Below, in pieces: positions 5,752-54,036 of a DNA stretch of 64,000 bases. The notes under the pieces are model-generated. The model was not told the origin of the DNA. It saw only the letters and a program-made list of their open reading frames with translations, and did no database searches. The number at the start of each line of letters is the position of its first letter. Position 1 is the stretch's first letter. This DNA is from a virus. Where the stretch lies: the IMG/VR virus record IMGVR_UViG_3300045988_144476, one strand, 5' to 3'. Made by a program: the position numbers and the translations under genes.

Positions 5752-5763
5752 TTGCTTCCTCCT

Positions 5764-6486
5764 TTATTTCAAAAGTTTATCTAAATTAACCATCTGCATA
5801 CTCGGAATTTGGTCTAAATTTACAACACCATCTTGAGTACCGTCTGGATCTTTTCCTGTAAGGTCTTCAGCTATAAGAGTAGATAAATTAGTAACTTCAA
5901 TACCTTCTCCAGTATCATTTCCATCTCTATCTGTCAGAATAACTTTTCTGTCTTCAGTATTAATATGAATATCCTTTACCATTCCGTTATAAGCATTTTC
6001 TGCCATAGACATCATATCTTTCTGAAGTGCTTCCATAACAAGTAATCTCTGATCAATTTCATCAAGCATTTCATCAGGCTCGTATTTAGCAAAGGCAGCA
6101 AGAGGAGAAATATGGATAACTCCTGACTGAGTTTTACGAACATAAGAAGTAGTAGAATCATCTTCATTAGATACTAATTTAAGAAATGTGAATGATACTT
6201 CAATATCACCAGCTTCTGCAGTTAAATAAGCTTCTGCTGGAATTAAGTACTGTATATAATCAGTTTCATATGCCAGATCATTTGGTTCTAGTTTAATCAT
6301 TTTAATCTTACCTGTAACAGGAAGAACATATCTCATGTAAACTGTACAATCTGACATATCAATTTGTTCTCTATATAATTTTGCGACCACAATCTGTATT
6401 TGATCTACATAATCGCTTCTCTCAATAATCTTTTCTTTTACTGTAGTCACAACAGTATTTTCATCAGTAATTTTTAAGGTATACAT
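5764..6486 (-). CDS. hypothetical tail-fibre-module protein (240 aa)
   Basis: ATG start with AAGGAGG RBS and 12-nt spacing to both neighbours. No recognisable motif. Confidence 0.7.
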   Translation of the reverse strand: MYTLKITDENTVVTTVKEKIIERSDYVDQIQIVVAKLYREQIDMSDCTVYMRYVLPVTGKIKMIKLEPNDLAYETDYIQYLIPAEAYLTAEAGDIEVSFTFLKLVSNEDDSTTSYVRKTQSGVIHISPLAAFAKYEPDEMLDEIDQRLLVMEALQKDMMSMAENAYNGMVKDIHINTEDRKVILTDRDGNDTGEGIEVTNLSTLIAEDLTGKDPDGTQDGVVNLDQIPSMQMVNLDKLLK

Positions 6487-12406: not shown

Positions 12407-15400
12407 TTATCTGTTACGTCCTGTCAGTTTCATCATGTCTTTTCTCATGTATTTACTATAATCATTCATAACAGTGTTACTTACCTCTTTGGCAAGTTTC
12501 TTAACATCAACATCACTGCTGATACTATCAACATTGATCGTAACATTGCTATTGAATGTATTTTCCTGATTTGAAGCAGGAATATTAGGTAATTTACCGG
12601 AAAGCATATCATTAAACTGACTCATTGTTGCCGTTGCGGGTTTTAACTGCTTTGTAAATTCCTGAGTAAGGATAGTTTCTCCAGGATTAATTGGAGCAAA
12701 TCCAGTATCGCCATTCTTAAGAATTGCGTCACCTAAGAATGAATTTGCATCTGCCGGTATAAGTTGACGAACAACTCCACCTTTAGAGAATCCATATCCT
12801 TTTAATTCTTTAAGAATTTTATCCTTCCATGATTTCTTCCAGTCTTTATATGGTTTACTTGCAATATAGTTATGACCAAGGATTTTAGCTACCTGTTCAA
12901 AATCCTTCTGACCTACTTTTTTATTTTTCTTCCAGAAATAATAATAGAAATCATGGTGTTTTTCTTTAAATTTGCTGCTTGTAACCTTTCCGGTGGGAAC
13001 ACTATTATACCATTCCTGAAGTTTAGACTTTGTATTTGCAGCTGATTCAACAGCGGCTTTAGCCTTTTGAGCAGCAGCAGCGGCAGCTTCAGCTTGTTCT
13101 CTTGCTTGTCTTTGCTCAATAGTCTCAACTGTTAGATTCGATCCAGAAGGATCCTGACTATTTAAAGCATTATTAACAGCATTATCAGATCCACTCTTGT
13201 CAGGACGCTGACTATCAATCTCGTCCGTATTTGTTTTTGGAACATTTGTAGGTATTTCACTGATAGTTTTATTTGTTAATTGTGCCTTTTTAATAAGGTC
13301 ATCAAACATATCAGAAGTCTTATATCCAGTATCTTCAATAGTTTTCTGAATATTACTATACGCATCAGAATAGGAATTCTGTACTTCTTTAAGCATGTTA
13401 TTAATAACAGACTTCTGAAGCTCTGTATTAGACTTGACAGCCTGAAGTGTTTTATCAAGTGCATCATTGGCCTGCTCAGATAAATTATCATATCCTTTAG
13501 ATTCTAAATCGATTTGGTGTTCATATTTAGTATCTGCCAGATCATCCTCTTTATCTTTAAGATCTGCTTTAAGTTGTGCAAGACGAGCTTTTGCTGATGC
13601 ATTTGTTGTACCTTCAAGAGCAGCAATTTGTGCTTTGAGTGTGTCGATATCCTTATTCTTATCTTTTAAAGTCTTATCATAGTCATAATAATCTTTTTTA
13701 GCACTAAGGGCATCTTTACGCTTATCAATATTATCCTGTAAGGACTTATTAACTTTAGTGATCTGGTCTTCATAAGCCTTAAGCATATTCTGTTGGCTGC
13801 TATAGAGACTCTTAGAAGCTTTATTGATATTAGAAACAGCATCTTTGGTAGCATCTTCATACTCATCAAGAGTTATCATATGATTGTCATACAACTCCTG
13901 AACTTCAGATAATTGTTGTCTATAATCAACGATCTGCTGTTTATAAGCGTCCATTTCTTTGCTAATTAACAAGATATTAGATAATCCCTGTTTTGTGAAT
14001 GAACCATCGTCATTCAGGAATGTATCAGAATCCATCATATCCTGAAGATCGTTTAGATTATCAATATAATCATTCAGATCATCCTGGATGTCACTAAATG
14101 CTTTAAATCTCAGGTCAACAATAGATTTCTTTAATTCCGCTGTACTATTTGCCGTATCAATAATAGAACTATTAATATCAGCTAAATCTTTGGCTAAATC
14201 CTGATACTGAGTAGAATTTTCGCTATATTGACTCATCTGATTAATAATGTCATTTCTTCTATTATTTAAAGCAATAGCGGTTTTATCATTGGTCTTTATA
14301 GCATTTAGATAATCATTTTCGGTCAGATCATTTCCAGAACCTTTATAATTATTTTTTTCTTTATAATCTCTGGAATCAGAAAGCTTATCAGAAGCTCTTT
14401 GATATTTGTCAACTTGCCACTGATCATAAGTAAGTTGGATTTCTTTTAACTTATTTTCATATTCAGCAGTTGATTGTATAATGTCATAATAAGATTTATT
14501 AAGCCCTTCAAGAGTAGCTTTTGCTTCTTTTGTGGCTGTATCATCTGGACCATATTTTTTAGCAAACTCATTATAAGCAGTCTGATACTTCTGAATTTCC
14601 TGATAAATCAAATCTGCTTGTGTCTGATTTGAAGAAATCTGATTTCTGATCGTATTTGTATAATCAGAATTAGGAGCCTGAGATGCACCTTTTTCTTCAC
14701 GAGCAGAATTTAAACTGTCTAAAGTCTCATTGTAAGATGAATAAACCCCAATTAAAGCATCATATCTCTCTGTAATATTGTTAAGTTTCTGCTGGTAGAG
14801 TTCTTTTTCTTTTTGTTTTAATTCCTCTATAGCTTTGTTACAATCATTGATTTTGTCATACCATTTCTGGTAAGCTTCAACCTTTTTCTTGTTATCATCA
14901 GAAAGTTTTGCCAGATCAATTTTACCATTCTTGACTTTATTCTTTAAATCAGCTGATAATCCAATATCTTTTGCAAACTTATCGGATTTCTTGGTGTACA
15001 TTTTAGCACCTTTAGCATAATCCTTCTGAAGTTCCTGATTATCCTTAAGCTGTTTATTGATATAAGTTTCTTTGTTTGCAAGCTTATATGTGTTTTCAGC
15101 TTTAGCAGCATTTAAATCTATACGATTCTCAAGCTTCTTAACTAATCGTTCAAACCAGTCTACAATATCATCAAGATATTTCTTGGAAGAAGATTTAGAT
15201 GAGGATTTATTTTTTTTTCCAGATCCAGATCCTGAACCAGAATTTGAACCAGAAGATTTCTTATTGGAAGAACTAGAAGAAGTAGATTTCCGAGTAGAAG
15301 TGTCTTTAAAATTAAATCCAGTAAGTGCATAAGCATTAGAACCTAATGAACCTTGAGCATAAGCACGAGCATTACTATTTGTTCGTCCATGTTCTAATAA

Positions 15401-18400
15401 ATCTTTTGTTTGGGAAGCATTAAATATAATATCTCCCTTTTTCAGATTTTCGAAATGTGGACCACCTGGTAATAAACTCCACACACCATCACGAACAATA
15501 GATTCCGTACCTACTTCATTTGTAAGGGCAGTCTCATTCTGATTTAAAGCAACATTACCACCTGCATGAGCAGAAGAAAGTGGCTTCAGGTTAAGCATAT
15601 TATAAGCAGTACCATCAGCATGAGCGATTGAGGTCATTGTGCCAGTAGCTTGTACCTTTTTAGTGTATACAGCAGTTCCAAATATTGTAGGAGCAGTTTT
15701 AGGATAACTACCTAAAGTATAATTTGCAGTACCAGATATGTCTGGAGCTGTTGTTGGATGATCACCCATAGTATAATTTGCTTGACCTTTTATATCATCA
15801 GCTACTTTAGGTTCATCACCTTTTTTATAATTTACAGTAATGCTTGCAGGATTTGATTCTATCTGTGATTTAATTGCATCGACATTTCCTACATTACCTT
15901 CTTCTACACCAATTGAAATTTGTACTTCAGGAGGAAGTTGAGCAATTTCATTTACTAATTCTGATACTTTGTCATCTTGCACAATAGCATCAATAGTAAC
16001 ACCTTTTCCTTGAAGTTCAGAAATTCTCGCCTGTAATTGATCTACTAATTCAGCACCTTGAGTTTCGGCTGTAACCTGTACTTTTTTATCATGGATTTGC
16101 TGCAGAAGATCTATTAAAGCCTGAACTTTTTCTGCATCTTCAACATCTCCATCTATTGTAAACTTTGTTTGTTCTTTAGAGAGTTCTTGAATTTTAGATT
16201 CTAGATTGTCGATAGACATAGAATCAGCGTCTATGTCAAGATCAATTTTAGAATTTATTTTTCCATCACTTTGAAGTTGTTTTACATCTTCAAGAGCACT
16301 ATCTGCACTTGCTTTAAGCTCTTCAATTTCTGAAGAGTCAACTTCCGGCTTAAGAACACCCAATCCTTCAAGAGCCTGTACAAGCTGGTCTTTCGTTAAA
16401 CCGGCCTGATTAGCAAGATCTTGTAATGCATCTTCAGCTTGTTCCATACCTTCAACATTGTAAGCACCGTCACCAAGTTGGATTCCTTCAAGATCAGTAG
16501 CAGTATATTGTTTTAGAGCGTTGAAATCAGCTTCAGTTGCTTCTGCATTTGCTTCGTGAGCCTGCTTAACTGCTTCAAGAGAATTCGCATATTCTTTAGC
16601 TGCAGTCGGATCAGAAATTCCCATCTCTTCTGCAGTGAGAGGAGAATCAAATGTTCCAATACCTTTATCGTGTAGCATCTGATTAAAAGCATCTTCGTCA
16701 ACTTCGAACTCAGGAGTTAATTTAATCTTATTATCCTTAGCTAATTGCTGAATACGATCATATAATCCTTGAGCATATTCCTGTTGTGCCGGATCATCTT
16801 TCACCTGTTGGTATTCTTTTGCAAAATCATTAATTGTCTGTTTTGCAGTATTCAGATTTTGCACTTCACGATCAGTTGCGCCATTTACATATGTATCAAG
16901 AGCAGTATTAGCATCATTAACCTGATTCTTTAAATCATCCACAACTTGAGCTTGCTGTTCAATCGCATATTGTGGTGCACCATTGGCAACTAATTCAGAG
17001 TATTTTTCTTGTGCAGAAATAAGATCTTTAGTCTTTTTGGTAACATCAGCCTCTCCTTCGGCTATAGATGAAATATTTGTAACAACTCCACCCATATCTT
17101 CGTAACGGCCAATGTAATCCTTGAATTGTTCTTCACTCATTCCAACTGCTTTGGCTGCAACATCGGAATCAGCAAATGTCATTTGCCATTGTTTAGAGCC
17201 ATCTTCAAGAGTTTTATAAGTAGCAAGTCCTTTTGATTGTAATAAATCAAGGAATTTTAATGGGCCAGATTTATCATCTGTATAATATGGTTTCCACTTA
17301 TTATAATTCTCAATGAAATTATCAGCATCTGTGAATCCATAAGGAGAGAAGTAAGCGGCTTTCTCTTTAAAATCATCTGTACCAATTTCACCATTATCGT
17401 ACATTTCTTTTAAAGATTCTAACTTACTTTTAGTTGCCTTATAATGATCTCCGGCATTTGGAGTGCTTTCAGCATTAATACCCTTTTGCCATTGACTGGT
17501 CTGTTCCTGCATATTTTTATACTGAGCCATATATTCATTTTGAAGATTCTTAAGTTCTTCAAGTTTTTGTTTTTCTGACTCAATAATATTACCATTTGAA
17601 TCGTGGATTTTCTTCTCTTGATCAGCAATCTGAGATGCTAAATCTTTTGAAACCATTTCATTTTGGGCTTCAGAAAGCTCCTGGAATCTATCAGTATTTA
17701 ACTGTAATCCTTTTGCAGATCTTGTAAATAATCCACTTATATCAGTTCCCTGAGCAGTAAGATCACTAAACTGAGTAACAAGATTCTTCACAGAGTCACT
17801 GGTTAATCCAGTTTCACTATTTGTTTCTCCAATAGCAGTACTCAAAGCACTGGTCAGATTTGTAACATCAGTAATAGGAAGATTCTGGATTTCTTCAAGC
17901 CATCCAGCCTGAGAAGCTTTCATATTTTCGATGGACATTTGAGCAGACTGGATTTGATCCTGGTATCCTTTGATCTTCTCATTGTCTTCATCAGTAAGAG
18001 GAGAGATACCTTTACTTTCTCTAATTGTACGGATATTATCCTGGTAATCCTTAATCTGTTTATTCAGATTTGAAATCTGAGCATTACCATTCTCAACAAG
18101 ATTGTTGTAATCCTGTGCAGTTGCTTTCTGATTTAATGCAGATTTATTACTCATTAGGGTCTGCATATCTGAAGCGTCAGTCTGAAGTCTAGTTAAATCT
18201 TTAGAGAGATTTTCAAGATCCTGATCATTCGCATCAAGATGAATTTGTGGACGTAATTCATCAATTTTTGCAATCCATTCATCAAGACTAGCAGTAGCCA
18301 TAGAAGGATCCATAGACAATTTTACAATTGCTTGTTGAGCTACTTTATCACCAGAATATTTATCGAAAAGATTAGTAAGGGTATTTTCTGCATTATCCTT

Positions 18401-20383
18401 TAAGAATTCAGATCCTTTTAAATTTGACCGAACTCGTTTGATTACATCATCCTGAACGTTGCTCATATCAAATCCCGCAGTATTAATACCATCCAAAATA
18501 CTTTGAACATATTTATCTGCAGCAGCTAATTCCTTCGGATCAGTCGTATCTTTTACAGCATCACGAATCTTTCCAATAGCAGTAGAAGCTTTATCGGTTG
18601 CAAGTTTCTGCAAGCCTGTCTGTAAATCATCTGTCTCAGTAGCAAGTTCTGGGAATTGCTGAATAAGATCTGTGATATCAGAACTCTTCATATCACCGGA
18701 TTTCAGGGAATCCATAGCAGTCTTGATATTAGACATACTTGACTGGAAATTATCTGTTACGGTATCAATGTCTGTTGCTGTGTCTTCAGCTGCATTCTTG
18801 AAGAGAGAAGAAAAAGTTTTGGATGTATCTTCGGAAGAAGCTTTAGATTCTTCCATTGCTTTATTCCAATTGGAAGTAAGTGTACCTATTCCCCAATCAT
18901 TCTCTTCAGGATCAAGACCATTATTCTGGAGATAATTCCAGAAAGTTTCTATATCTTTATCTGATTTATCCTTAAAAAATGCATCAGCGATTGAGCCGCC
19001 AGAAGTACTCGGAAGTTTTGACATAAATGCAAAAGTATCTTTAAGATTTTCTTTTACACCTTCAATATTTAATGCTTCCGGATCAGCTATAGCCATGATA
19101 TAAGATGCCAAATCATCTTGTGATACATTTTTATCTCCAAGTGCTGATTTGAGATCAGAATAATCTTTATTACTATTCAGAGCATCAAGAATTCCCTTGG
19201 AACCTTTAGACTTACCAATACTTTCAAGTTTTGTCTGTAAGTCTGCATAATCAGCGAGAGCAAAAAGATTGTTTAGTTTGTCCTCTGTGTCGGAAGATGA
19301 ACCTATGAGATTTGAGTAATTATCAATAAGAGAATTAACCTGGTCAATGGTACCCTGGTATTTCTTATCAAGAACTGTACCATCATCTTTAAGCATACTC
19401 TGTGACTGATCTGAGATATTAGAAATCATTTCAGAAAGTTCTGATTTTTGAGTATCAATACCTTCTTGCTGTCTCTCAAGAGTTTTATTTTCCTCTTCGG
19501 TAATTAGGTCCATATTATCGCTATGACCTTTTTTAATATTTTCATAGGCGGTATCATATCTATCCTGTAGATGTTGGATGTAATCCATTTTTGCCTGAGC
19601 TTCATCAAGATCATTAACATATACTTTGGCTTGTGGATTATAAATTCCACTACCGTCAGAGAAATAATCCTGCTGTAGAGATTTCTTCTTTAGATCTTTT
19701 TGTGCAGCATCTGCCTCAGCAGTTTTGGCACTGTCAGCTAATTTTTGTTTCAATGATACTTGGGCACCAAGAAGTTCATTCTGATCCTGAAGAGTATTTA
19801 ATTCTTGACTCTCTTCTAGTGATCTGTTTTCTTTTGCTCGAAGCTCTTGAATACGATCTTGATTAGTTGCGTATGCAGATTGTGCGGTTTCAAGATCAGA
19901 TTGAGCTGTTTCATTCTTCTCTTGAGCTTTTTGGTATTTCTTTGTGGTGGTTGCTTTTGTAAGATCAAATTGATTATCAAGACCTTTCCATGTAGCTGTA
20001 ACTGCTGCAATGCCTAATGAAAGAATTAATTCTGGAGCAATTGCTTTAAGCACAGATCCAATACCGGATAATACACCACTAGCTTTTCCAGTGACTCCTT
20101 TAGAACCAAATAAGAAACTTTTAATGTCTACAGTTTTGGTAGCATTGTCAAGAGCCTTTTCAACCTCTTCTTTGGTATGCTCTTCACCAAATTTATTCTT
20201 AACAGCTTCAAAAATCTGATCTGTTGATAGGAATTTTTGATTGCCTTTTCTATCGGTGTTTACACGATAAGCCCATTTCATTGCTGTCTCAAAATCTGAG
20301 AATCCACCAAATGCCGCATTTAAATCTTCTTTTGTACCTGTTTTAAATGCATTTTTTAGTTTTCCGATTTTACTTAATGACAT
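12407..20383 (-). CDS. tape measure protein, distal part (TMP-B, 2658 aa)
   Basis: Hydrophobic N-terminal segment (GVLSGIGSVLKAIAPELILSLGIAAVTATW) followed by about 2500 aa of Lys/Glu/Gln/Asn coiled coil. Two TMP-end-like motifs: GTESIVRDGVWSLLPGGPHFENLKKGDIIFNASQTKDLL (~15400-15540) and PGETILTQEFTKQL (C-terminus). Followed by Dit and Tal. ATG at 20383 has no Shine-Dalgarno. Confidence 0.75.
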   Translation of the reverse strand: MSLSKIGKLKNAFKTGTKEDLNAAFGGFSDFETAMKWAYRVNTDRKGNQKFLSTDQIFEAVKNKFGEEHTKEEVEKALDNATKTVDIKSFLFGSKGVTGKASGVLSGIGSVLKAIAPELILSLGIAAVTATWKGLDNQFDLTKATTTKKYQKAQEKNETAQSDLETAQSAYATNQDRIQELRAKENRSLEESQELNTLQDQNELLGAQVSLKQKLADSAKTAEADAAQKDLKKKSLQQDYFSDGSGIYNPQAKVYVNDLDEAQAKMDYIQHLQDRYDTAYENIKKGHSDNMDLITEEENKTLERQQEGIDTQKSELSEMISNISDQSQSMLKDDGTVLDKKYQGTIDQVNSLIDNYSNLIGSSSDTEDKLNNLFALADYADLQTKLESIGKSKGSKGILDALNSNKDYSDLKSALGDKNVSQDDLASYIMAIADPEALNIEGVKENLKDTFAFMSKLPSTSGGSIADAFFKDKSDKDIETFWNYLQNNGLDPEENDWGIGTLTSNWNKAMEESKASSEDTSKTFSSLFKNAAEDTATDIDTVTDNFQSSMSNIKTAMDSLKSGDMKSSDITDLIQQFPELATETDDLQTGLQKLATDKASTAIGKIRDAVKDTTDPKELAAADKYVQSILDGINTAGFDMSNVQDDVIKRVRSNLKGSEFLKDNAENTLTNLFDKYSGDKVAQQAIVKLSMDPSMATASLDEWIAKIDELRPQIHLDANDQDLENLSKDLTRLQTDASDMQTLMSNKSALNQKATAQDYNNLVENGNAQISNLNKQIKDYQDNIRTIRESKGISPLTDEDNEKIKGYQDQIQSAQMSIENMKASQAGWLEEIQNLPITDVTNLTSALSTAIGETNSETGLTSDSVKNLVTQFSDLTAQGTDISGLFTRSAKGLQLNTDRFQELSEAQNEMVSKDLASQIADQEKKIHDSNGNIIESEKQKLEELKNLQNEYMAQYKNMQEQTSQWQKGINAESTPNAGDHYKATKSKLESLKEMYDNGEIGTDDFKEKAAYFSPYGFTDADNFIENYNKWKPYYTDDKSGPLKFLDLLQSKGLATYKTLEDGSKQWQMTFADSDVAAKAVGMSEEQFKDYIGRYEDMGGVVTNISSIAEGEADVTKKTKDLISAQEKYSELVANGAPQYAIEQQAQVVDDLKNQVNDANTALDTYVNGATDREVQNLNTAKQTINDFAKEYQQVKDDPAQQEYAQGLYDRIQQLAKDNKIKLTPEFEVDEDAFNQMLHDKGIGTFDSPLTAEEMGISDPTAAKEYANSLEAVKQAHEANAEATEADFNALKQYTATDLEGIQLGDGAYNVEGMEQAEDALQDLANQAGLTKDQLVQALEGLGVLKPEVDSSEIEELKASADSALEDVKQLQSDGKINSKIDLDIDADSMSIDNLESKIQELSKEQTKFTIDGDVEDAEKVQALIDLLQQIHDKKVQVTAETQGAELVDQLQARISELQGKGVTIDAIVQDDKVSELVNEIAQLPPEVQISIGVEEGNVGNVDAIKSQIESNPASITVNYKKGDEPKVADDIKGQANYTMGDHPTTAPDISGTANYTLGSYPKTAPTIFGTAVYTKKVQATGTMTSIAHADGTAYNMLNLKPLSSAHAGGNVALNQNETALTNEVGTESIVRDGVWSLLPGGPHFENLKKGDIIFNASQTKDLLEHGRTNSNARAYAQGSLGSNAYALTGFNFKDTSTRKSTSSSSSNKKSSGSNSGSGSGSGKKNKSSSKSSSKKYLDDIVDWFERLVKKLENRIDLNAAKAENTYKLANKETYINKQLKDNQELQKDYAKGAKMYTKKSDKFAKDIGLSADLKNKVKNGKIDLAKLSDDNKKKVEAYQKWYDKINDCNKAIEELKQKEKELYQQKLNNITERYDALIGVYSSYNETLDSLNSAREEKGASQAPNSDYTNTIRNQISSNQTQADLIYQEIQKYQTAYNEFAKKYGPDDTATKEAKATLEGLNKSYYDIIQSTAEYENKLKEIQLTYDQWQVDKYQRASDKLSDSRDYKEKNNYKGSGNDLTENDYLNAIKTNDKTAIALNNRRNDIINQMSQYSENSTQYQDLAKDLADINSSIIDTANSTAELKKSIVDLRFKAFSDIQDDLNDYIDNLNDLQDMMDSDTFLNDDGSFTKQGLSNILLISKEMDAYKQQIVDYRQQLSEVQELYDNHMITLDEYEDATKDAVSNINKASKSLYSSQQNMLKAYEDQITKVNKSLQDNIDKRKDALSAKKDYYDYDKTLKDKNKDIDTLKAQIAALEGTTNASAKARLAQLKADLKDKEDDLADTKYEHQIDLESKGYDNLSEQANDALDKTLQAVKSNTELQKSVINNMLKEVQNSYSDAYSNIQKTIEDTGYKTSDMFDDLIKKAQLTNKTISEIPTNVPKTNTDEIDSQRPDKSGSDNAVNNALNSQDPSGSNLTVETIEQRQAREQAEAAAAAAQKAKAAVESAANTKSKLQEWYNSVPTGKVTSSKFKEKHHDFYYYFWKKNKKVGQKDFEQVAKILGHNYIASKPYKDWKKSWKDKILKELKGYGFSKGGVVRQLIPADANSFLGDAILKNGDTGFAPINPGETILTQEFTKQLKPATATMSQFNDMLSGKLPNIPASNQENTFNSNVTINVDSISSDVDVKKLAKEVSNTVMNDYSKYMRKDMMKLTGRNR

Positions 20384-23985: not shown

Positions 23986-26900
23986 TCAACCTACGGCTGT
24001 TTTAAAACCACCACCAATTAAGAAATCTAATCCTTTTTTACCTGCATTCTTTACAGTCATTGCTGAGAAAATTGCAGTGATTAGAGCTGGTATTGGTCCT
24101 AAAGTTTTCTCTAATCCGGTAAATCCTTCTGTTAATCCATGTACAAAATCAAGTGCTCCACCTACTTGATCTGAATTATAGAAGTTTAACCAGAATTCGT
24201 CCATTTGAGTTTTAATGGCCTGGACTTTGCCATTGAAAGATTCCATGTATTTCTCTTGGTTTGCTTCAGCGTTACCTTGAGCATTTGTAGCTTCTTCAGC
24301 TAAAGACATGGAGTCTGTGAATGCGTCCAATATGTTCTTGAACTTGGATGTTTGTCTTGTCGCTGCGACATCAAATGCGATTTTTGCTTGCTGTGCATCA
24401 GTCAAATCATTCCATTTGGATTTCAGTTCGGATAATACCGTAACAATTCCACGGTCTGATCCATCTGGATTATAGACATCAACACCTATAGAATGCAGAG
24501 AAGCAGAAGCATTTGATAATGTTGCATTATCAACCTCATCTGCGTATTGTGGCATTTTACCGACTTTTGTGGTTCTGGTAATAATTGTCTTTAAAGCATT
24601 ACCAATTGAACTTCCATCTTCACGAGTTCTTTCAGCTACTTTTGCAGAAATAGCAGCTAATTGTTCATATGACATTCCGGCATCATAAGCAACCTGACCT
24701 GAAGCCTGTACAGCATCAGACATTACCTTAATACCTTTGGCATAATCCATACCCACGTTCGATGATATTTTATCCATTACATCTACTACATGCATAGAAG
24801 CATCAGCAGCAGAAGTAGATCCGTCTTCTAACATATGGAACTGCTGTAAAATACCCTGTACCTGGTCAGCAGCAGTAGAAGCATCAACACCACTTAAGTT
24901 ACTCAGAATAGCAGTCGGTTTAGCAGTTTCCTGAATTTCTTTTGAAGTAGTATTCATATTTGCATAGATCTGATAAATATCCATTGTATTATCAAGAGAC
25001 ATTGACAGATCTTTTGCCATATCAACAGCAGAAGTACCTAAATCAGATAATTGCTGTTTATTCATATCCATGGTATAACTGATAGTAGTTAAAGCCTTAT
25101 CATAATCCATGAATGTATTGAATCCTTCACGCATTTGTTGCCATGCCTGTTGCATAATTTGGATACTACCAACAGCATTTGCGACATCACCAAGAGCGGA
25201 AGTAAAGTTACCTTTTACAAGTCCTTTCAGACTATCTGAAAGAGATGTAAAACCAGATGTTCCGGATTTATTTGTATATTTCTCCATTGTACGGAGACTG
25301 TCATTTGCTTTTTCTATATTACCTGTAAGAGTAACAAGATTACCTGAAACATCTTTAAAAACTAATGATATAGAACCGGTACTTTTATTTATACTAGTTG
25401 AAACTTCATTAGTAAGACCAAGTTGAGATGCATAATTTCTTAGAGCAGAAGTAGCATCATCAATATCTTTTATGGTACCAAGAGTACCTTCTTGTAAAAT
25501 ACCTTTTCCATTTTTTCTATCATATCCAGAAGCAGTTTTTTGGAAATTTTCAATATCAGAAATGATATTATTAACAGAATCATGAAAATTATTTTCGTCA
25601 ATTTCTTTATTATTAAGTGAATCAACTAATTGATTGTATCGTGTTCTAAATTCAGTGATCTTATCTTTGTAGGCATCAATTTTATTTCCAGAATTTGCAA
25701 ATTTATTTAATTTATTTATTTGTTCTGCGAAATTAAGCTCGTCATTACCTGTCACAGTATTTTCATAATAATTCTTTAGATCTGTAAATTTTTCGGTCTG
25801 TTCTTGTATTTTATCAACATAATCTAAAATACCATTAGCATTTTTATTTTGATTAAATGCACTTTCAGCATCTTTAGTAGATGTTTTTATACTTTCTAAA
25901 TCAGCTTTTAAACGATCGGTTATACGACCTGCACTTTCAAGTTTGGTGAGATAACTATCGACTTGATTTAAGAATGACTTAGAATTATTTGAAATTAACT
26001 GATCTTGAGTAGCATTGGCTCTATTACGAATATCAAATATTGCATTTTCAGCAACTTCTTTCCCAAATATGCTATTTACTTGTGCACGAAGACTTTGATA
26101 TGCATTAGTATAATTTTCACCTAAAATCTTTCCGGCAGTAATATCGGCTCCATCTTTAGTAGCAAGACCAAGAAGTTTGTTTTCGTTATTTCTTTTGTTT
26201 GAATATGCCTTCTTCATCAATTCAATGATATTATTGTTTTTACCATCAAAATTAGAATAATCAGACATATCATCAAAAGCCTTTTGATATGAATCAAATT
26301 TCTTTTGATCTAAAATTCTGTCGGGATTTGATTTATTATTATCGTATACTGTATTATAAAAATCCCCAACTTCTTTTCGTAAAGATTTAATTTTATCTAC
26401 TTGAGCATTTACTTTTTCAATGTATTCATCTTTACCATATTTGCCAGAAGCTCCATTTGCCTGGATATTATATAAATCAACATATGCTTGTTTTAATTCT
26501 TTAACTTTAGCAATAGCAGAGTCATATGTTTGATTATAATCATCTATATTTTTCTGTGTATTTTCTTTCTGAAAAGCACTATATGCACCTTGTTCAGCTT
26601 CACCTAATTTACTTTTTTGGGTGTTATAAGCATTTACACGATCTTTTCCTAATACATCAGAATGCTGTTCAATAAATTTATCGGCATCCTCAATATTCTT
26701 TTGTTTATTATCAATTTCTTTGCGTAAATTGTTAATTAATTCATTAGAAGCACCTTTAGATTTAGCAGAAGATAATTCTTTATTTTTCTTCTCTAGTTTA
26801 GAAAGACCATTCATTAAATCGGTGTATTCAGAAATAATTTGATCTGAAATACGATTTCCCGCACGTTCGTTCATATCAATCCGATGTTGTTCAATTCCTT

Positions 26901-29775
26901 TTTGAATTGCCTCATCAAATTGTTCAGTCGTATATTCAGGATGTTCTTGAGCATAAGTCTCTGCATCTGCTCTTAAGCTCTTCATACGTCCCTTTAAATA
27001 TCCAATACGTTTTTTAGAAGCTTTAATATTAGATTGACTACTATTTTTGGCAATACCTGCCTCCATATCAGCAAGATCTTCACGTTCGGTCATTAATCTT
27101 TTTTCTATATTAATTGCTTCTGTCTCTAACGCTGCATATCCGCTTTTTATATCACCGCCAGATTGTCTCCATAAACCATCTGAATCTTTTGTGAGAGTTC
27201 TAGTGTATGATCGTCCGGTCTGATCGTCTTTGTAAACTGTAGTCTTTTTTCGACCATTAATGTCTTCCTTATTAGACACAAGTCTATAATTCTTATATGG
27301 ATTATCTTGTTCCAAAAACCCTAAAAGTTTTTCTGGAGAAAGTTTAAATCCATTATATGTACTACCTAAAAGATTTCCAGATTTATAACCAGTTAAAAAA
27401 TTCTCTTTATGAGCAATAAAACTTTGTTCGTTTTCAGCTGCTTGAGCATTTTTCTTAGCTTGTATAATACGAACTCTTTGTTCTTCTCTATCAGATTTGC
27501 TTTGAGCAGTATCTGTAGATACTTTTAATTTAGGCGCAGAAGTAACTTTATATTTTCTTTCTTCTTGTTTAACAGATTCTTCCTGCTTCTTAGCCGTATC
27601 CTCAGTAGCAACACCAAGTCTCTTAGTAGAATCAGCCATCTGATCAATATTTTCAGTGGCATTACCGGCAGCAGAAGCAACAGCATCATTGATATGATCA
27701 ACGGCAGTATCCACAGCATCTGCAGTCTTTTCTGTTTTCTTAGCTTGAGTGGTAGGAGATTTAGAAGAAGTAGATGTATCCTCTAAAGAATCACGAAGTG
27801 CATAATGAGTGTCAGAAAGAAAATATAATCCTTTAGTATCTTTACCAGATTTTTTACGAATTTTCCCTAATAATCTTTCTTCGTATCTTTCTGTTTTATC
27901 TAAATCTGCAATAGATAAATTTCCGTTATTTTTTTTGATATTTTGAGCAAACATCTGATTGACAAGTTTATCAGCTGCATTTCTAATACTATCATGTGAT
28001 AATAATGTACCATCAAAATTATTTATCTGATCATAAATTTGAGAAAAAATAGATAATCTTTGTTCTAACCCTTTTAATTCTGATTCGGCATCTTTCAAAT
28101 TAGTATTTTGATTTACATAAGGAGAATGTAAATTTAAAGCTTCTGCAGGTATACCATTTTTTAAAGCAGTTATATAATATTTTCTTGTTTTATATAAAGC
28201 TGCAGTTTCTGAAAAACTACCTTGTGGTATATCTGGATTTTCTCGAATTTGATCTAAATCTCTTGAAGCTGCCATAAATTTTGTGGCGGCATTTTTTTTA
28301 CCAGTAGCAGAATAATCAGCGTTTACAATTGAATCATATACAGAACCTTTCGAAGTAATATTCTGTGTAGGAGTAGTAGATTGAGTGGATTTCTTCTGGG
28401 TAGTTTTAGGTTTAGAAGAAGTAGATTTGGAAGTAGATTTCTTTTTAGGAGTGGTTGTTTTTGGAGCGAAACTAGAAACAGCTTTCTTTTCCGCATCTTG
28501 TTGCTCTAAGAATAGTTTGGCAGATTGTTCTTCATATATTTTTTTGAAAAATCCTGTAGTATCTTGTTCGAATATAAGGTTTTTTACGTCATCAAAATCT
28601 TGAAGATCTTTAAGACCTGTTCCACCCTTATATTTATACACTAGGAGATTTCCAAGAATACCAGCCTGAACAGTTGGGCTTAAGTCTTCATTTTGAAAAT
28701 CATGTTCCCGTCTGTATCTATTTAATGTTGCTCTTGACGTTTTAGCGTCATTTTTTTCAATAGCTTCTAGTATTTTATCTTTAGCATTAGATAATTCTCT
28801 ATTTTTAGTATCTAAAATATCACGTTTTCCTGCATCTTTAGCTTGGGCTGTCAGTCCAGTTTGCACTGACTTTAAAGCATCTATAACTTCTTTAGATCCA
28901 GCACCAATGGATTTTGCTGCTGTAATAAATACTGTAGCGATTCCTTCACCACCAGCTTCTAACGAAGTCTTTATATCGCCAATTAATGCTTTTTGAGATA
29001 CTTCTTCAGTAACAGATGTATTAAAACCGGGAATAAGTTCAGAATTTTTTTTGGTAAAATAATTTCTTGTGGCTACTTGATGACCACCTAAATTATCTGG
29101 AGTATTATTTTTATTAAATTGTTCAACAAGTCTGTCATGATAAGCAAGAACGTCCGCTTGTCTTTGTCGTGCAGCTAACATTTCATCTAAAGTTTCATAT
29201 TCTTCAGCTTTAAAAAGTCCAGACTTACTGCTATAAGATTCATTAATTTTTTTTATAATATTACCAATACGAAACAATTCTGCAATTTGTTCTTGATATT
29301 CACTAGAAATTTTATTCTTATTTATAAAAGAAGTAATTCCACCACGAACTCTTGAATCTAATTCAGAAGTAGACGCTAATTCTGGATATTGAGACATAAA
29401 ATCTTTTACATTAGCATTTTTACCTAATTGTGTTAAATTTTTTTTTGTAACGTTGGTAGTTGCATTTGAAATAGCACTTTCTAATGCCTTTGCATATGCT
29501 TTAGCGTCACTTAAAGTTTTCTTATCAAGATTTGATGGAAGTTTTACTTCTCCCATTAATGGAATTTTAGTTTCTTTATATTTAATCTCAGCTTCTGTTT
29601 TAATTGGCTTTTCAGCCTCTCTACGAGCTTTATCTATTTTTGATGTATCTGGGATAATAGTATCTTTTGTTTCATAATCTTTACTTGCTTCTTTTTTCCA
29701 TTCATCCCATAATTTTTTATCAACATTAATCGGAACATTTATTTCATGTTCGCCACTTGGTCCTTGATAACTCAT
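23986..29775 (-). CDS. tape measure protein, proximal part (TMP-A, 1929 aa)
   Basis: TP901-type TMP core-like stretch (AKDLSMSLDNTMDIYQ...SSIGNALKTIITRTTKVG), long coiled coils, a Ser/Thr/Lys linker and a hydrophobic Gly-rich C-terminus (PALITAIFSAMTV..FLIGGGF). RBS AGGTGAT. Confidence 0.85.
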   Translation of the reverse strand: MSYQGPSGEHEINVPINVDKKLWDEWKKEASKDYETKDTIIPDTSKIDKARREAEKPIKTEAEIKYKETKIPLMGEVKLPSNLDKKTLSDAKAYAKALESAISNATTNVTKKNLTQLGKNANVKDFMSQYPELASTSELDSRVRGGITSFINKNKISSEYQEQIAELFRIGNIIKKINESYSSKSGLFKAEEYETLDEMLAARQRQADVLAYHDRLVEQFNKNNTPDNLGGHQVATRNYFTKKNSELIPGFNTSVTEEVSQKALIGDIKTSLEAGGEGIATVFITAAKSIGAGSKEVIDALKSVQTGLTAQAKDAGKRDILDTKNRELSNAKDKILEAIEKNDAKTSRATLNRYRREHDFQNEDLSPTVQAGILGNLLVYKYKGGTGLKDLQDFDDVKNLIFEQDTTGFFKKIYEEQSAKLFLEQQDAEKKAVSSFAPKTTTPKKKSTSKSTSSKPKTTQKKSTQSTTPTQNITSKGSVYDSIVNADYSATGKKNAATKFMAASRDLDQIRENPDIPQGSFSETAALYKTRKYYITALKNGIPAEALNLHSPYVNQNTNLKDAESELKGLEQRLSIFSQIYDQINNFDGTLLSHDSIRNAADKLVNQMFAQNIKKNNGNLSIADLDKTERYEERLLGKIRKKSGKDTKGLYFLSDTHYALRDSLEDTSTSSKSPTTQAKKTEKTADAVDTAVDHINDAVASAAGNATENIDQMADSTKRLGVATEDTAKKQEESVKQEERKYKVTSAPKLKVSTDTAQSKSDREEQRVRIIQAKKNAQAAENEQSFIAHKENFLTGYKSGNLLGSTYNGFKLSPEKLLGFLEQDNPYKNYRLVSNKEDINGRKKTTVYKDDQTGRSYTRTLTKDSDGLWRQSGGDIKSGYAALETEAINIEKRLMTEREDLADMEAGIAKNSSQSNIKASKKRIGYLKGRMKSLRADAETYAQEHPEYTTEQFDEAIQKGIEQHRIDMNERAGNRISDQIISEYTDLMNGLSKLEKKNKELSSAKSKGASNELINNLRKEIDNKQKNIEDADKFIEQHSDVLGKDRVNAYNTQKSKLGEAEQGAYSAFQKENTQKNIDDYNQTYDSAIAKVKELKQAYVDLYNIQANGASGKYGKDEYIEKVNAQVDKIKSLRKEVGDFYNTVYDNNKSNPDRILDQKKFDSYQKAFDDMSDYSNFDGKNNNIIELMKKAYSNKRNNENKLLGLATKDGADITAGKILGENYTNAYQSLRAQVNSIFGKEVAENAIFDIRNRANATQDQLISNNSKSFLNQVDSYLTKLESAGRITDRLKADLESIKTSTKDAESAFNQNKNANGILDYVDKIQEQTEKFTDLKNYYENTVTGNDELNFAEQINKLNKFANSGNKIDAYKDKITEFRTRYNQLVDSLNNKEIDENNFHDSVNNIISDIENFQKTASGYDRKNGKGILQEGTLGTIKDIDDATSALRNYASQLGLTNEVSTSINKSTGSISLVFKDVSGNLVTLTGNIEKANDSLRTMEKYTNKSGTSGFTSLSDSLKGLVKGNFTSALGDVANAVGSIQIMQQAWQQMREGFNTFMDYDKALTTISYTMDMNKQQLSDLGTSAVDMAKDLSMSLDNTMDIYQIYANMNTTSKEIQETAKPTAILSNLSGVDASTAADQVQGILQQFHMLEDGSTSAADASMHVVDVMDKISSNVGMDYAKGIKVMSDAVQASGQVAYDAGMSYEQLAAISAKVAERTREDGSSIGNALKTIITRTTKVGKMPQYADEVDNATLSNASASLHSIGVDVYNPDGSDRGIVTVLSELKSKWNDLTDAQQAKIAFDVAATRQTSKFKNILDAFTDSMSLAEEATNAQGNAEANQEKYMESFNGKVQAIKTQMDEFWLNFYNSDQVGGALDFVHGLTEGFTGLEKTLGPIPALITAIFSAMTVKNAGKKGLDFLIGGGFKTAVG

Positions 29776-50568: not shown

Positions 50569-50748
50569 TTATTTTTCCTCGCTTAAAATAGATTTCTCCA
50601 ATAGGAGATTTTGTGTAGACTCAAAGGCTCATTATCTGTCATGATCAGAGACAAAACCTTTTGTAAACCCAATCTGACGCAAGCATCCTCATGGTAAAAC
50701 TATATCTACGATGTTTTATTGGAATTTTGATTTAATTTGTCAACCTCA

Positions 50749-50830
50749 TGGGAGAGGTAGGACTCGAACCTACGATGTTTCTTTGTGGCTGATTTACAGT
50801 CAGCTGCCTTCGCCGCTAGACTACTCTCCC
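50749..50830 (-). tRNA. tRNA-Tyr(GTA): tRNA-Tyr (GTA)
   Basis: Acceptor GGGAGAG/CTCTCCC, anticodon arm GCTGA-CTGTAAA-TCAGC, long variable arm, T arm GTAGG-TTCGAGT-CCTAC. Confidence 0.85.
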
Positions 50831-51485: not shown

Positions 51486-51506
51486 AATAATTCCTATATG
51501 GGATAA

Positions 51507-51591
51507 CGCAAAGCAGAATACTCGAAATTCAATCCAATAAAGGATCGCATGACTTAGCAGGTCAGCTCCGTGCCTCACGGATTTACTTTGC
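51507..51591 (-). tRNA. tRNA-Ser(GCT): candidate tRNA-Ser (GCT), non-canonical
   Basis: Acceptor GCAAAGT/GCTTTGC, 3-bp D stem, anticodon arm TGAC-CTGCTAA-GTCA, variable arm ATCC-TTTATT-GGAT, weak T arm GAAT-TTCGAGT-ATTC. A8 in place of U8. Confidence 0.5.
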
Positions 51592-51684
51592 AAGAGGAGA
51601 GTGGGAGACAGAAGTCTCCCTCAAAAAAAAATGAAAACAATAGTAACATAAACAACATCAAATTTGAGAGAAAAATTCTCTCAA

Positions 51685-51858: not shown

Positions 51859-51932
51859 TGCCCGGTGCGAGACTCGAACTCGCATTATTGCCTTGAAAGG
51901 GCAATGTCACTAGCCTGTTAGACCAACCGGAC
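51859..51932 (-). tRNA. tRNA-Glu(TTC): tRNA-Glu (TTC)
   Basis: Acceptor GTCCGGT/ACCGGGC, anticodon arm TTGCC-CTTTCAA-GGCAA, T arm GCGAG-TTCGAGT-CTCGC. Confidence 0.85.
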
Positions 51933-52090
51933 TTATTTTATCTAGGAAGCGGGAAGCGGTCTTCTGCCGAACTGTTTATCTTATTACCTACTAAATTATA
52001 AAGAGCCATGGTTTTATAAAATTTTGGATCTCAGTTTAAAGAACTAAGATAATATTCTTTACGATTAAATCGTACTTAATACTTCCCAAA

Positions 52091-52161
52091 TAGCGGAGAT
52101 TAGATTCGAACTAATGTCTCTAGGGTATGAACCTAGCAAGGATCCACTCCTCTACTCCGCA
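52091..52161 (-). tRNA. tRNA-Met(CAT): tRNA-Met (CAT) with initiator-like features
   Basis: Anticodon arm CTAGG-TTCATAC-CCTAG, T arm ATTAG-TTCGAAT-CTAAT. Positions 1:72 are a U-U mismatch and 11:24 is A-U. Confidence 0.8.
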
Positions 52162-52345
52162 TTAATCGTTTATATGGTAGAACTATATCTGTATCGTCTT
52201 ACAATACATAGCATGTTCACTTATTGCCTACTAAGGATTCCATACTTTATCCCGATCAAAGTATAAAATGGACTCGGTTAATAATTCACATCTCATTTAA
52301 TATACTTTGTGTATGTTTATCCACACCAAACTTTCAGGCACCAAA

Positions 52346-52419
52346 CTGGAATGATGCGATTTGAACGCACAACATCTTGGTCCCAAACCAAGCGGACTGC
52401 CAAATTGTCCTACATTCCA
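52346..52419 (-). tRNA. tRNA-Pro(TGG): tRNA-Pro (TGG)
   Basis: Acceptor TGGAATG/CATTCCA, D arm GGAC/GTCC, anticodon arm CTTGG-TTTGGGA-CCAAG, T arm GTGCG-TTCAAAT-CGCAT. Confidence 0.85.
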
Positions 52420-53221
52420 TTAATAATAGGATGAGATTATTGACCTATTTAAATCAGCTTTGCTTACCGTTGGAAGTAAGTAATCACACGAACGATTAAT
52501 TCGTAGCTGATAGCGACACCAGTTTCAGTGGCTACTGGCAAACTCTTACTACATAGTATTATAAATTTCCTTTCAGCACATTCTTCCTTGCGAGATTCAG
52601 AGATTGCAGTCTCTTAGAGTTGCACCTAATTGTACTTTTTCATATTTCACCTTGCGAGTTTAATATGTGTCCATATTACAGAACAATAAGTCGCTTTTCT
52701 CTATGTAGTCGCATACACTTTTGCTTAATATAAGAATTTAACATTATTTTATGTTTTCTAACCAATTAAAAATATGTATGCTATTATTTATAGACTACGA
52801 GGTATACGTTTGAACATCTGTATCTTTTGAATACAGCCCATTCATCGCAGCCTTGCTTGTCTTGCTATCGACTCACTTTAGGCTATTCTAACTATCTTTC
52901 GATTTAAGTCAGAAATGTCCAATTAAATACAGCACTTGCTCTTGCGGAACTTGCACCATAAAACAACCTTACTGTCCACCCATTTCTGAGTTTATTTATA
53001 GCACCTTTCCCATGATGCCCGACCAACCATTGTCCTCAGCGGATGCCCCAAGACTTTAGGTTGGAACGTTAGTAAGTATTGGCTTTCTATCACCCCTCTT
53101 TAGAAGGAGGCACTTTCGTGCTTTATACGTGTCACCACGCTTATTTAACGACTTGAAGCCAGCCGATCTAATATTTATATATTTTATAAAAAAAACATAA
53201 AGCTTATTAGATAAAGCTAAG
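52420..53221 (-). ncRNA. candidate large structured non-coding RNA (GOLLD/ROOL-like context)
   Basis: 800-nt spacer between tRNA-Pro and tRNA-Asn with no ORF and less AT bias than its flanks. Minus-strand GNRA-capped hairpins: GCAC-GAAA-GTGC (53110-53121) and CGTG-GTGA-CACG (53128-53139). Three-way junction CAGCT[ACGAA..TTCGT][CTTAC..GTAAG]AGCTG (52455-52509). CCAACC/GGTTGG stem. Internal repeat CTCGCAAGG at 52586 and 52650. Confidence 0.5.
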
Positions 53222-53294
53222 CTGACCCAGTAGGAATTGAACCTACGACACGCTGGTTAACAGCCAGCTGCTCTACCTATTGAGCTATGGGCCA
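53222..53294 (-). tRNA. tRNA-Asn(GTT): tRNA-Asn (GTT)
   Basis: Acceptor TGGCCCA/TGGGTCA, D arm GCTC/GAGC, anticodon arm GCTGG-CTGTTAA-CCAGC, T arm GTAGG-TTCAATT-CCTAC. Confidence 0.85.
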
Positions 53295-53301
53295 ATATAT
53301 A

Positions 53302-53321
53302 GGAGTGAGTTTCCTCACTCC
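53302..53321 (-). terminator. hairpin after the HU gene, directly abutting tRNA-Asn
   Basis: GGAGTGAG-GAAA-CTCACTCC (8 bp, GNRA loop on the minus strand) followed by TATATATT. Confidence 0.5.
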
Positions 53322-53330
53322 ATTATTTAA

Positions 53331-53603
53331 TTACGCATTAACTGCTTCTTTAATAGCTTTACCAAATTTGCATTTTACTGCATTCTTAGCATCAACCATT
53401 ACAGTTTCACCAGTTCTTGGATTACGAGCTGTACGAGCATCTTTATGTACAGAATACAGAGTTACTCCGTCCATCAGTTTAACTTCCTCACTAGCAAGTG
53501 TAGCAAATGTTACGTCCTGAACAGCTTCAATAACTGTCTTTACATCTTTCTGTGTGAATCCTGTTTTACCTGCAACTTCTTTAATCATTTCAACTTTGTT
53601 CAT
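53331..53603 (-). CDS. hup: HU/IHF-family DNA-binding protein
   Basis: 90 aa. MNKVEMIKEVA...GFTQKDV...RTARNPRTGETV...KCKFGKAIKEAVNA is a typical HU fold signature. Strong RBS AAAAAGGAGAAA. Confidence 0.9.
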   Translation of the reverse strand: MNKVEMIKEVAGKTGFTQKDVKTVIEAVQDVTFATLASEEVKLMDGVTLYSVHKDARTARNPRTGETVMVDAKNAVKCKFGKAIKEAVNA

Positions 53604-53680
53604 TATAAATTTCTCCTTTTTATCCTTTTATATTTTTTAATTTATAGAAAACAGCAAAATACTGTTAACTTTCAATACGA

Positions 53681-53696
53681 TTGATTAAAACATTAG
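53681..53696. repeat. intergenic motif TTGATTAAAACATTAG, copy A
   Basis: Overlaps the stop of the Zn-ribbon gene, about 80 nt upstream of the HU start. Confidence 0.7.
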
Positions 53697-53697
53697 T

Positions 53698-54036
53698 TTA
53701 GTTAAAAATATTATTGGCGATTTCTGCGCCTTTTTCATTAAGTATTTCACATGAATTGATATAAGATGTAATTACATTACCTTCTTTATCTTCACGCTTG
53801 ATTTCAATCCCTTTGCATTTTGGATTTTTGCATGCCATTACATTTCCATGAATAAATGTCATTGGCTGACCACATGCTCTACAAATGTGTTTAGATACAA
53901 ATTTTTCCTGTTGTTTTGCAAGTTTTTCTTCATCACTTGTTTTTTTAACAATTGGTTTCATTCCCCAGGCTTCTCTAAGATCAGCGAGAGAAGTATAATG
54001 TTCTTTTGTCCCGGAGGATAATCTATAATTTTTCAT
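53698..54036 (-). CDS. zinc-ribbon protein (112 aa)
   Basis: CRACG..CKNPKC. RBS AAGGAGA. Confidence 0.7.
   Translation of the reverse strand: MKNYRLSSGTKEHYTSLADLREAWGMKPIVKKTSDEEKLAKQQEKFVSKHICRACGQPMTFIHGNVMACKNPKCKGIEIKREDKEGNVITSYINSCEILNEKGAEIANNIFN

Follow-up and report, generated by a model that had tools for sequence, protein, structure and literature searches.

Introduction

GOLLD RNAs are among the largest and most elaborate RNAs of bacteria and phages, and have recently been shown to form RNA-only nanocages. They combine a universally conserved 3' region with a less conserved 5' region, exceed 800 nt in many members, and are found in phages and prophages near transfer RNA (tRNA) islands. 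Here, we describe such an RNA in the IMG/VR virus record IMGVR_UViG_3300045988_144476, of which a stretch of 64,000 nucleotides was analysed (in the following, the window). We are highly confident that positions 52424-53167 of the minus strand are the gene for a GOLLD-family RNA, which an uncultured tailed phage carries in its tRNA array. This RNA is a new, divergent member of the known family, not a new class.

For two GOLLD RNAs, closed protein-free cages have been described: the 833-nt env-38 RNA assembles into a 14-mer of D7 symmetry and the 700-nt RNA of Streptococcus agalactiae into a 12-mer. In these structures, the 5' domains form the caps and the 3' domains the rings, while a variable linker is disordered and lies inside the cage; in env-38, loops of the P21 region join the two half-shells. 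Differences in secondary structure between GOLLD members alter the stoichiometry of the cage, and the expression of GOLLD has been linked to phage production. ROOL RNAs resemble GOLLD in being large, ornate phage or prophage RNAs near tRNA genes and in forming RNA-only cages, but their sequence and fold are described as distinct in published accounts.

The region had been singled out in a first-pass annotation, made from the sequence alone, which suggested that the tRNA strand encodes a large ornate RNA, either a member of the GOLLD or ROOL classes or of a new one. The RNA itself is borne out by a full-length GOLLD match on the minus strand; of the proposed affiliations, GOLLD stands, while ROOL and a new class do not. 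In the following, we describe this RNA, its homologs and its structure, and discuss its expression and its mobility within the tRNA array.

Identification of the RNA

The gap at 52420-53220 (801 nt) is flanked by the genes for tRNA-Asn(GUU) upstream (53221-53294) and tRNA-Pro(UGG) downstream (52346-52419), which belong to the 11 tRNA genes that ARAGORN finds in the window, all on the minus strand. No open reading frame (ORF) of more than 40 amino acids overlaps the gap in any frame. As the first-pass annotation stated, the gap is the longest ORF-free stretch, once a minus-strand frame at 1-5763 is allowed for, and it is less AT-biased than its surroundings: the GC content is 0.376 for the RNA versus 0.322 for the window, with 0.43 in the 5' domain (the 5' two-fifths of the RNA) and 0.136 in an internal linker.

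The Rfam model for GOLLD (RF02032), which covers only the conserved 3' domain of the family, matches 52428-52853 of the minus strand over its full length (model positions 1-416), with 114.5 bits and an E-value of 6.2e-31. A permissively filtered search of 51900-53700 gave no match to ROOL, HEARO, OLE or other large Rfam RNAs up to E<=10, and at the gathering score there was none anywhere in the window. Moreover, the minus strand folds better than shuffled controls, with a minimum free energy of -205.3 kcal/mol compared to -180.2 +/- 7.9 kcal/mol (z = -3.2); the corresponding value for the plus strand is z = -2.1 (20 shuffles each). The motifs of the family, namely the UCAAAAG loop, AAGCAAAAGU, GACUUAU, the GCAA-capped hairpins, the UCCAAC loop and the GUCAA..UCUCA terminal loop, align to the Rfam consensus and are invariant or nearly so across the subtype of 27 sequences described below. 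Our identification thus rests on the full-length RF02032 match, on helices and three published long-range contacts that covary in these homologs, and on the setting in a phage tRNA array.

Homologs and extent of the conserved unit

To collect relatives, we scanned viral contigs with the GOLLD core motif, which gave 91 loci, and with a neighbouring 954-residue protein, which gave 59 syntenic loci; the near-invariant AAGCAAAAGU motif (52717-52726, minus strand) at the 3' end of the linker was the search pattern that retrieved GOLLD loci. When searched with the 801-nt gap using nhmmer, these two sets yielded full-length relatives in only four loci, in whose alignment the first ~50 nt are not homologous, homology setting in at about 53167 and continuing to the 3' end. 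A pattern specific to this subtype, AAATCGAAAGATAG-N50-75-TCAAAAG, uncovered 30 more viral loci. Twelve further pattern loci, from the genome collection, were rejected as chance matches, as none was homologous by nhmmer. After dereplication, 27 distinct homologs from viral contigs remained (alignment A2), which are 64-90% identical to the window and fall into 10 clusters at 80% identity. Loci are referred to by L numbers below.

The limits of the RNA follow from nine loci with RNAs 86-88% identical to that of the window. In these, BLASTN similarity extends from 53167 to 52424 or 52427, with no relationship between the flanks except for tRNA genes, so that the conserved unit comprises 744 nt (52424-53167, minus strand), in agreement with the full-length homologs found by nhmmer. 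Nearly all homologs are flanked by tRNA genes on the same strand, 0-70 nt upstream and 4-41 nt downstream.

Against the Rfam GOLLD model, the members of the subtype score 103-115 bits, those other than the window RNA at 103-104 bits, and one is undetected at E<=1e-6. Beyond the subtype, we observed further GOLLD-like 3' domains in L005 (7499-7918) and L045 (867-1263), which match the model over its full length with 71-77 bits and E-values of 1e-16 to 1e-18. Since the scores of the subtype and of these divergent forms remain below the Rfam gathering score of 150, a considerable share of the family in viral metagenomes escapes the curated threshold.

Some of the related loci contain other RNA genes. 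Transfer-messenger RNA genes (65-79 bits, above their gathering score) lie within a few kb of the GOLLD and tRNA array in L010 (362-778), L039 (6286-6701) and L005 (3113-3417). In several related arrays, ARAGORN also reports tRNA-like genes with odd anticodon loops ('tRNA-???': gtta, tt, agaa, at), for instance at 15858-15936 in L146 and upstream of GOLLD, in part directly, in L163, L175 and L160; these could be frameshift-suppressor-like or decayed tRNAs.

Structure of the 3' domain

For an evaluation of the conserved 3' domain (52428-52853, minus strand), we mapped the consensus structure of Rfam, obtained independently from other sequences, to alignment A2 via the cmscan alignment of the window. 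The window retains 93 of the 98 consensus base pairs, 87 of them (94%) as standard pairs. Across the 27 sequences, 90.9% of the alignment cells are paired, compared to 33-42% when the partners are slid by 1-3 columns, and 56 of the 93 pairs show changes on both sides, compared to 6-17 in the slid controls; none of 500 shuffles reached the observed values. Each of the 14 Rfam helices finds a place in the window, and covariation supports 12 of them.

The domain begins with a hairpin (52792-52853) that corresponds to P14 of the published table together with its outer stem (helices 1-2, 98.8% and 90.7% paired) and keeps its UCAAAAG loop in all 27 sequences. A long stem, formed by 52701-52709 as 5' strand and 52548-52556 as 3' strand, surrounds the core multi-helix junction (helix 3, with compensatory changes in 8 of 9 pairs). 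Further downstream, a three-way junction at 52453-52511, in which AUCAGC/GCUGAU encloses two hairpins with the invariant loops UUAAUC and UCCAAC, comprises helices 11-13; it is 98-99% paired and 16 of its 19 pairs are compensatory. The domain ends with a terminal hairpin at 52429-52445 (helix 14, P27 in the published naming), which carries the conserved loop CAAUAAUCUCA.

The P21 sub-domain (52562-52638) displays two GCAA-type loops, CUGCAA at 52604-52610 and CGCAA. It differs from the GOLLD consensus in that it is wired as a small three-way junction; a further difference of the RNA from the consensus is one hairpin shortened by 7 nt. The alternative P21 junction was obtained with RNAalifold, and its pairs 692-694/727-729 and 716-718/724-726 are formed in 27 of 27 sequences, with many double changes. 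Another RNAalifold proposal, a helix joining the 5' and 3' ends of the RNA (columns 7-12 with 878-883), was rejected; the local P1 hairpin of the 5' domain and the terminal hairpin covary better.

All local helices that the first-pass annotation had listed are at the stated places and have support from covariation. Besides the CCAACC/GGUUGG stem treated below, these are CCAGU/ACUGG (52534-52538 with 52519-52523), CUGUAU/AUACAG (52831-52836 with 52818-52823) and the three-way junction of helices 11-13, as well as, in the 5' domain, the GCAC-GAAA-GUGC (53110-53121) and CGUG-GUGA-CACG (53128-53139) helices. The annotation had also reported an internal repeat, which is indeed present: the two copies of CTCGCAAGG at 52650-52658 and 52586-52594 correspond to a pair of hairpins with GCAA caps in the 3' domain of GOLLD, and therefore represent a recurring structural motif rather than a duplication.

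The pattern of variation also bears on the question of whether the region encodes small proteins instead of an RNA, a reading to which we attach next to no probability. Several ORFs of 20-40 amino acids are present in the gap and could be taken to favour it, but none is longer; furthermore, the variation falls into paired columns with compensatory changes, and indels are of arbitrary length and sit at hairpin tips, which is not what a preserved reading frame would produce.

Long-range contacts

In published work on GOLLD, three sets of covarying, non-nested pairs have been listed, which in env-38 numbering are 467-471/555-559, 576-580/743-747 and 776/824. Our comparison with env-38 made use of this pair table and of the 5' boundary of the RNA. 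Judged by the aligned sequences, all three contacts are kept and covary in the subtype.

The first of them, pseudoknot 1, pairs CGUAUAC (52802-52808), located in the internal loop of the hairpin that opens the 3' domain, with GUAUGCG (52710-52716), a strand that adjoins AAGCAAAAGU just after it and lies directly 5' of the long stem strand 52701-52709. It is 99.5% paired, with compensatory changes in 4 of 7 pairs and 26 double-change cells; a register shifted by two positions also pairs, given the alternating purines and pyrimidines, but shows far less covariation. We spotted this complementarity by reading the alignment, and the published R-scape table lists exactly that contact. Pseudoknot 2, the published 576-580/743-747, connects GCGAC (52690-52694) with GUCGC (52513-52517) and is 98.5% paired, with 4 of 5 pairs compensatory. 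Pseudoknot 3, the published 776/824, connects GAUU (52482-52485) with AAUC (52435-52438) in the loop of the terminal hairpin and is paired in all sequences (100%), with 2 of 4 pairs compensatory. Taken together, pseudoknots 2 and 3 are 99.2% paired and display 47 double-change cells versus 0-12 in the slid controls. Covariation is blind to whether such contacts are formed within one molecule or between molecules.

Between the two strands of pseudoknot 1 lies the AU-rich, variable linker J13/15 (52727-52791, 65 nt), which cannot be aligned across the 27 homologs and varies in length among them. In two homologs, it harbors a gene for tRNA-Leu(gag), at 4579-4651 in L037 and at 4847-4920 in L064. 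Both the tRNA in the linker and the tRNA-adjacent setting agree with published descriptions of GOLLD.

These results also speak to the possibility that the region is the remnant of a GOLLD in decay, or a spacer without function that arose when the tRNA array was rearranged. Such an origin might be suspected from its score, which is lower than that of canonical members, and from the fact that the module carrying it is dispensable in some sister phages (see below). Yet the window shows 94% of the retained consensus pairs and all three pseudoknots intact, an RNA identity of 86-88% persists in relatives with flanks too divergent for BLASTN to detect, and the substitutions are overwhelmingly compensatory. 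Intact pairs, similarity confined to the RNA and compensatory changes are the signature of purifying selection on structure, and we consider a remnant very improbable.

The 5' domain

Upstream of the region covered by the Rfam model, a 5' domain of ~314 nt (52854-53167, minus strand) completes the RNA. It begins with the P1 hairpin (53149-53165), followed by a GNRA hairpin (53127-53140), two variable hairpins (53093-53121), a CCAACC/GGUUGG stem (53059-53064 with 53023-53028) and five further hairpins, including an invariant AUC-GAAA-GAU (52894-52903). In this structure, 96.8% of the alignment cells are paired, compared to 35-40% in slid controls, and 42 of 60 pairs are compensatory. The CCAACC/GGUUGG stem had been described as an enclosing stem in the first-pass annotation; it is present and undergoes compensatory changes, but it encloses a sub-domain of the 5' half only and not the whole RNA.

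Independent support for the 5'-domain structure comes from the two adjacent hairpins that follow the conserved AUAAAG. They are found in 27 of 27 sequences, although their lengths and sequences are quite different, the GCAC-GAAA-GUGC hairpin of the window being the shortest.

At strict thresholds, a profile of the 5' domain retrieves members of the subtype only. Under sensitive settings, this profile also aligns, over its first ~150 positions, with 5' regions of lake-type GOLLD loci, canonical members with scores of 311-319 bits, compared to 114.5 bits for the window RNA. The shared features are P1, UUAAAUAA, the GNRA hairpin with compensatory changes in its stem, AUAAAG, a variable hairpin, a GAAA-capped hairpin and a CCRACC...GGUUGG stem. 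Likewise, the env-38 reference begins in the same way as the 5' domain of the window, but its 5' domain is ~100 nt longer.

Assignment to the GOLLD family

In sum, the RNA shares with GOLLD (RF02032) the full architecture of the 3' domain, the three non-nested contacts, an AU-rich internal linker able to host a tRNA, the conserved loops UCAAAAG, AAGCAAAAGU, UCCAAC and GUCAA..UCUCAG, the first ~150 nt of the 5' domain, a size in the range of 700-830 nt and the setting in a phage tRNA array.

Several observations weigh against our interpretation. The score of 114.5 bits lies below the Rfam gathering score of 150 for GOLLD, and it contains a composition bias term of 19.5. Within the 3' domain, Rfam helices 6 and 9, which belong to the P21 sub-domain, fit the subtype poorly (67% and 56% paired), and for the distal ~165 nt of the 5' domain, no counterpart could be detected in the other GOLLDs of the loci examined. 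Furthermore, the 5'-domain structure was obtained with RNAalifold, with P1 added by eye, and was tested on the alignment it came from. Finally, some relatives have a near-consensus promoter and terminator of their own, while co-transcription with the tRNAs, discussed in the next section, is something we infer.

Some of these points could be read as signs of a new class of large ornate RNA that resembles GOLLD only superficially: the score below the gathering threshold, the subtype-specific distal 5' domain and, in addition, the lack of any BLASTN match of the RNA in 50,697 deposited phage records. Opposed to this are the match to the whole RF02032 model, the covariation of 12 of 14 family helices and of three published tertiary contacts in the right places, the presence of the conserved family motifs, and the alignment of the first third of the 5' domain to bona fide GOLLDs. 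The model match and the covariation of helices and contacts effectively refute a new class, which we regard as extremely improbable. The 150-bit cut-off is a curation choice and not a structural feature. As the GOLLD match falls below it, a default Rfam scan misses the RNA: at gathering scores, such a scan reported only tRNAs in the window, and GOLLD surfaced only with E-value reporting.

Leader, ends and expression

Between tRNA-Asn and the first conserved base of the RNA lies an AT-rich leader or spacer (53168-53220, minus strand) with a weak hairpin, a U8 run (53188-53195) and TATAAA-like hexamers. It is conserved in none of the homologs, not even in those whose RNAs are ~87% identical. The first-pass annotation had pointed to the hairpin and U8 run after tRNA-Asn and to the TATAAA-rich stretch as hints of a separate transcription unit. 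Hairpin and U-run are present, but the hairpin is weak (-3.9 kcal/mol), is not called by a terminator scan and is not conserved.

An independent transcription unit with a promoter just upstream, as opposed to read-through from the array followed by processing, is not supported for the window copy and appears unlikely. The best promoter-like match in the leader, TTTATG-N16-TATAAA at 53201-53174 (8 of 12 positions), would place the start at ~53167, precisely at the first conserved base, which is suggestive but weak in such AT-rich sequence. It remains below the threshold of the promoter scan, which found no site reaching threshold in the leader, and AT-rich hexamers are expected by chance: 9 promoter-like sites were found versus 12.2 expected. 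Nor does a terminator follow the RNA in the window, where tRNA-Pro starts 8 nt past the end of the Rfam match. Some relatives speak for a unit of its own. In L064 and L037, a near-consensus TTGAAA-N17-TATAAT lies upstream and a GUCUC-UUCG-GAGAC hairpin with a U-run, a terminator, downstream, and in ~16 homologs a terminator-like hairpin precedes the next tRNA. These differences indicate that the architecture of expression varies within the subtype.

For the window, the simplest reading of the sequence is that the RNA would be made during infection together with the same-strand tRNAs, from a common precursor, and would be released by the enzymes that process tRNAs. At its 3' side, this could be achieved by RNase P, which would cut 8 nt downstream, where tRNA-Pro begins, and at its 5' side by the 3'-end processing of tRNA-Asn.

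Sister phages and an indel module

Two sister phages, L092 and L122, are collinear with the window, with 70-78% nucleotide identity on both flanks, while similarity within the array is limited to the tRNA genes. Their own GOLLD is a canonical one of ~940 nt (185-189 bits) which is not BLASTN-similar to the 744-nt RNA of the window. It belongs to the same phage lineage, tRNA array and strand, but occupies a different slot: the order is Pro-Met-[GOLLD]-Ala in L092 and Asn-[GOLLD]-Pro-Met in the window. Among the 59 syntenic loci, the L092 type is found in 45, and the subtype of the window only in L130.

In three other collinear loci, L116, L148 and L117, no GOLLD match was found at E<=1e-3. Here, tRNA-Asn is followed, past its 3' end, by sequence homologous to that found past the 3' end of tRNA-Pro in the window. 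Leader, GOLLD and tRNA-Pro are therefore one indel module of 875 bp (52346-53220, minus strand), bounded by the 3' ends of tRNAs and absent from these three loci. More distant loci of the subtype also show the order Asn-[GOLLD]-Pro. From these comparisons, the leader-GOLLD-tRNA-Pro unit behaves as a module of gain, loss or exchange in the array.

Genomic surroundings

The window represents the genome of a tailed phage, with genes for the large terminase, portal and exonuclease. It is without a close relative in the 50,697 deposited phage records, against which megablast of 24 kb of the window gave no match; the nearest cultured terminases, from Bacillus and Clostridioides phages, are ~24% identical. 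Directly upstream of the tRNA array, 53331-53603 (minus strand) encodes a 90-residue HU/IHF-like DNA-binding protein (phrog_379, E=2.5e-24), and a GC hairpin without a good U-run follows this gene at 53302-53321.

Two other non-coding stretches of the array region are conserved. In the 300-nt spacer between tRNA-Ser and tRNA-Leu, ~90 nt (51504-51595) are 77-81% conserved with L092, L122, L116 and L117; they are not called as a tRNA and match no Rfam family. Just past tRNA-Tyr, the last tRNA of the array's main cluster, a 144-nt non-coding block (50612-50755, minus strand) is 95% identical to L116 and L148, versus ~75% for the neighbouring genes, and is found in 44 syntenic loci. It starts with a perfect TTGACA, matches no Rfam family and folds with an unremarkable energy (z about 0.4); it may serve as promoter or regulatory region of the gene downstream, which encodes 481 amino acids. 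No further RNA families emerged when the other array spacers and 1-5800 were scanned permissively against Rfam.

The minus-strand frame at 1-5763 comprises more than 1,900 codons, leaves the window at its left edge and was absent from the ORF list. Together with ORFs of 2658 (12407-20383) and 1929 amino acids (23986-29775), it is one of several giant proteins of this phage. We had considered 363-2490 as a second long ORF-free region or a case of stop-codon recoding, and rejected both in favour of this single giant frame running off the window edge.

Discussion

The understanding of what GOLLD is stays unchanged by the RNA described here, but its variation within the family may prove informative. 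As the fold of the 3' domain, the long-range contacts and the conserved loops are kept, we think it probable, by analogy to the solved structures, that the window RNA forms a homo-oligomeric cage. It would fold into a 5' cap and a 3' ring and self-assemble, as a closed, RNA-only particle with the linker inside.

How such a cage would be built is a more tentative matter. With its shortened, partly unique 5' cap and its rewired P21, the subtype may form a cage that differs from the 12-mer and the 14-mer in stoichiometry or geometry. In the same tentative vein, GOLLD-tRNA units may be exchangeable cassettes, and phages carrying one subtype, another or none may constitute an allelic series suited to finding the function of these RNAs.

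Given that small differences in secondary structure affect stoichiometry, a third GOLLD architecture would be a useful structural target. Likewise, the subtype of 27 sequences, together with a 5'-domain structure supported by covariation, could widen the model of the family. Lastly, a canonical GOLLD, the subtype of the window and a clean empty site occur in one collinear phage lineage, which shows that the RNA is a module both dispensable and exchangeable, and these three states of the array offer natural comparisons for functional tests.

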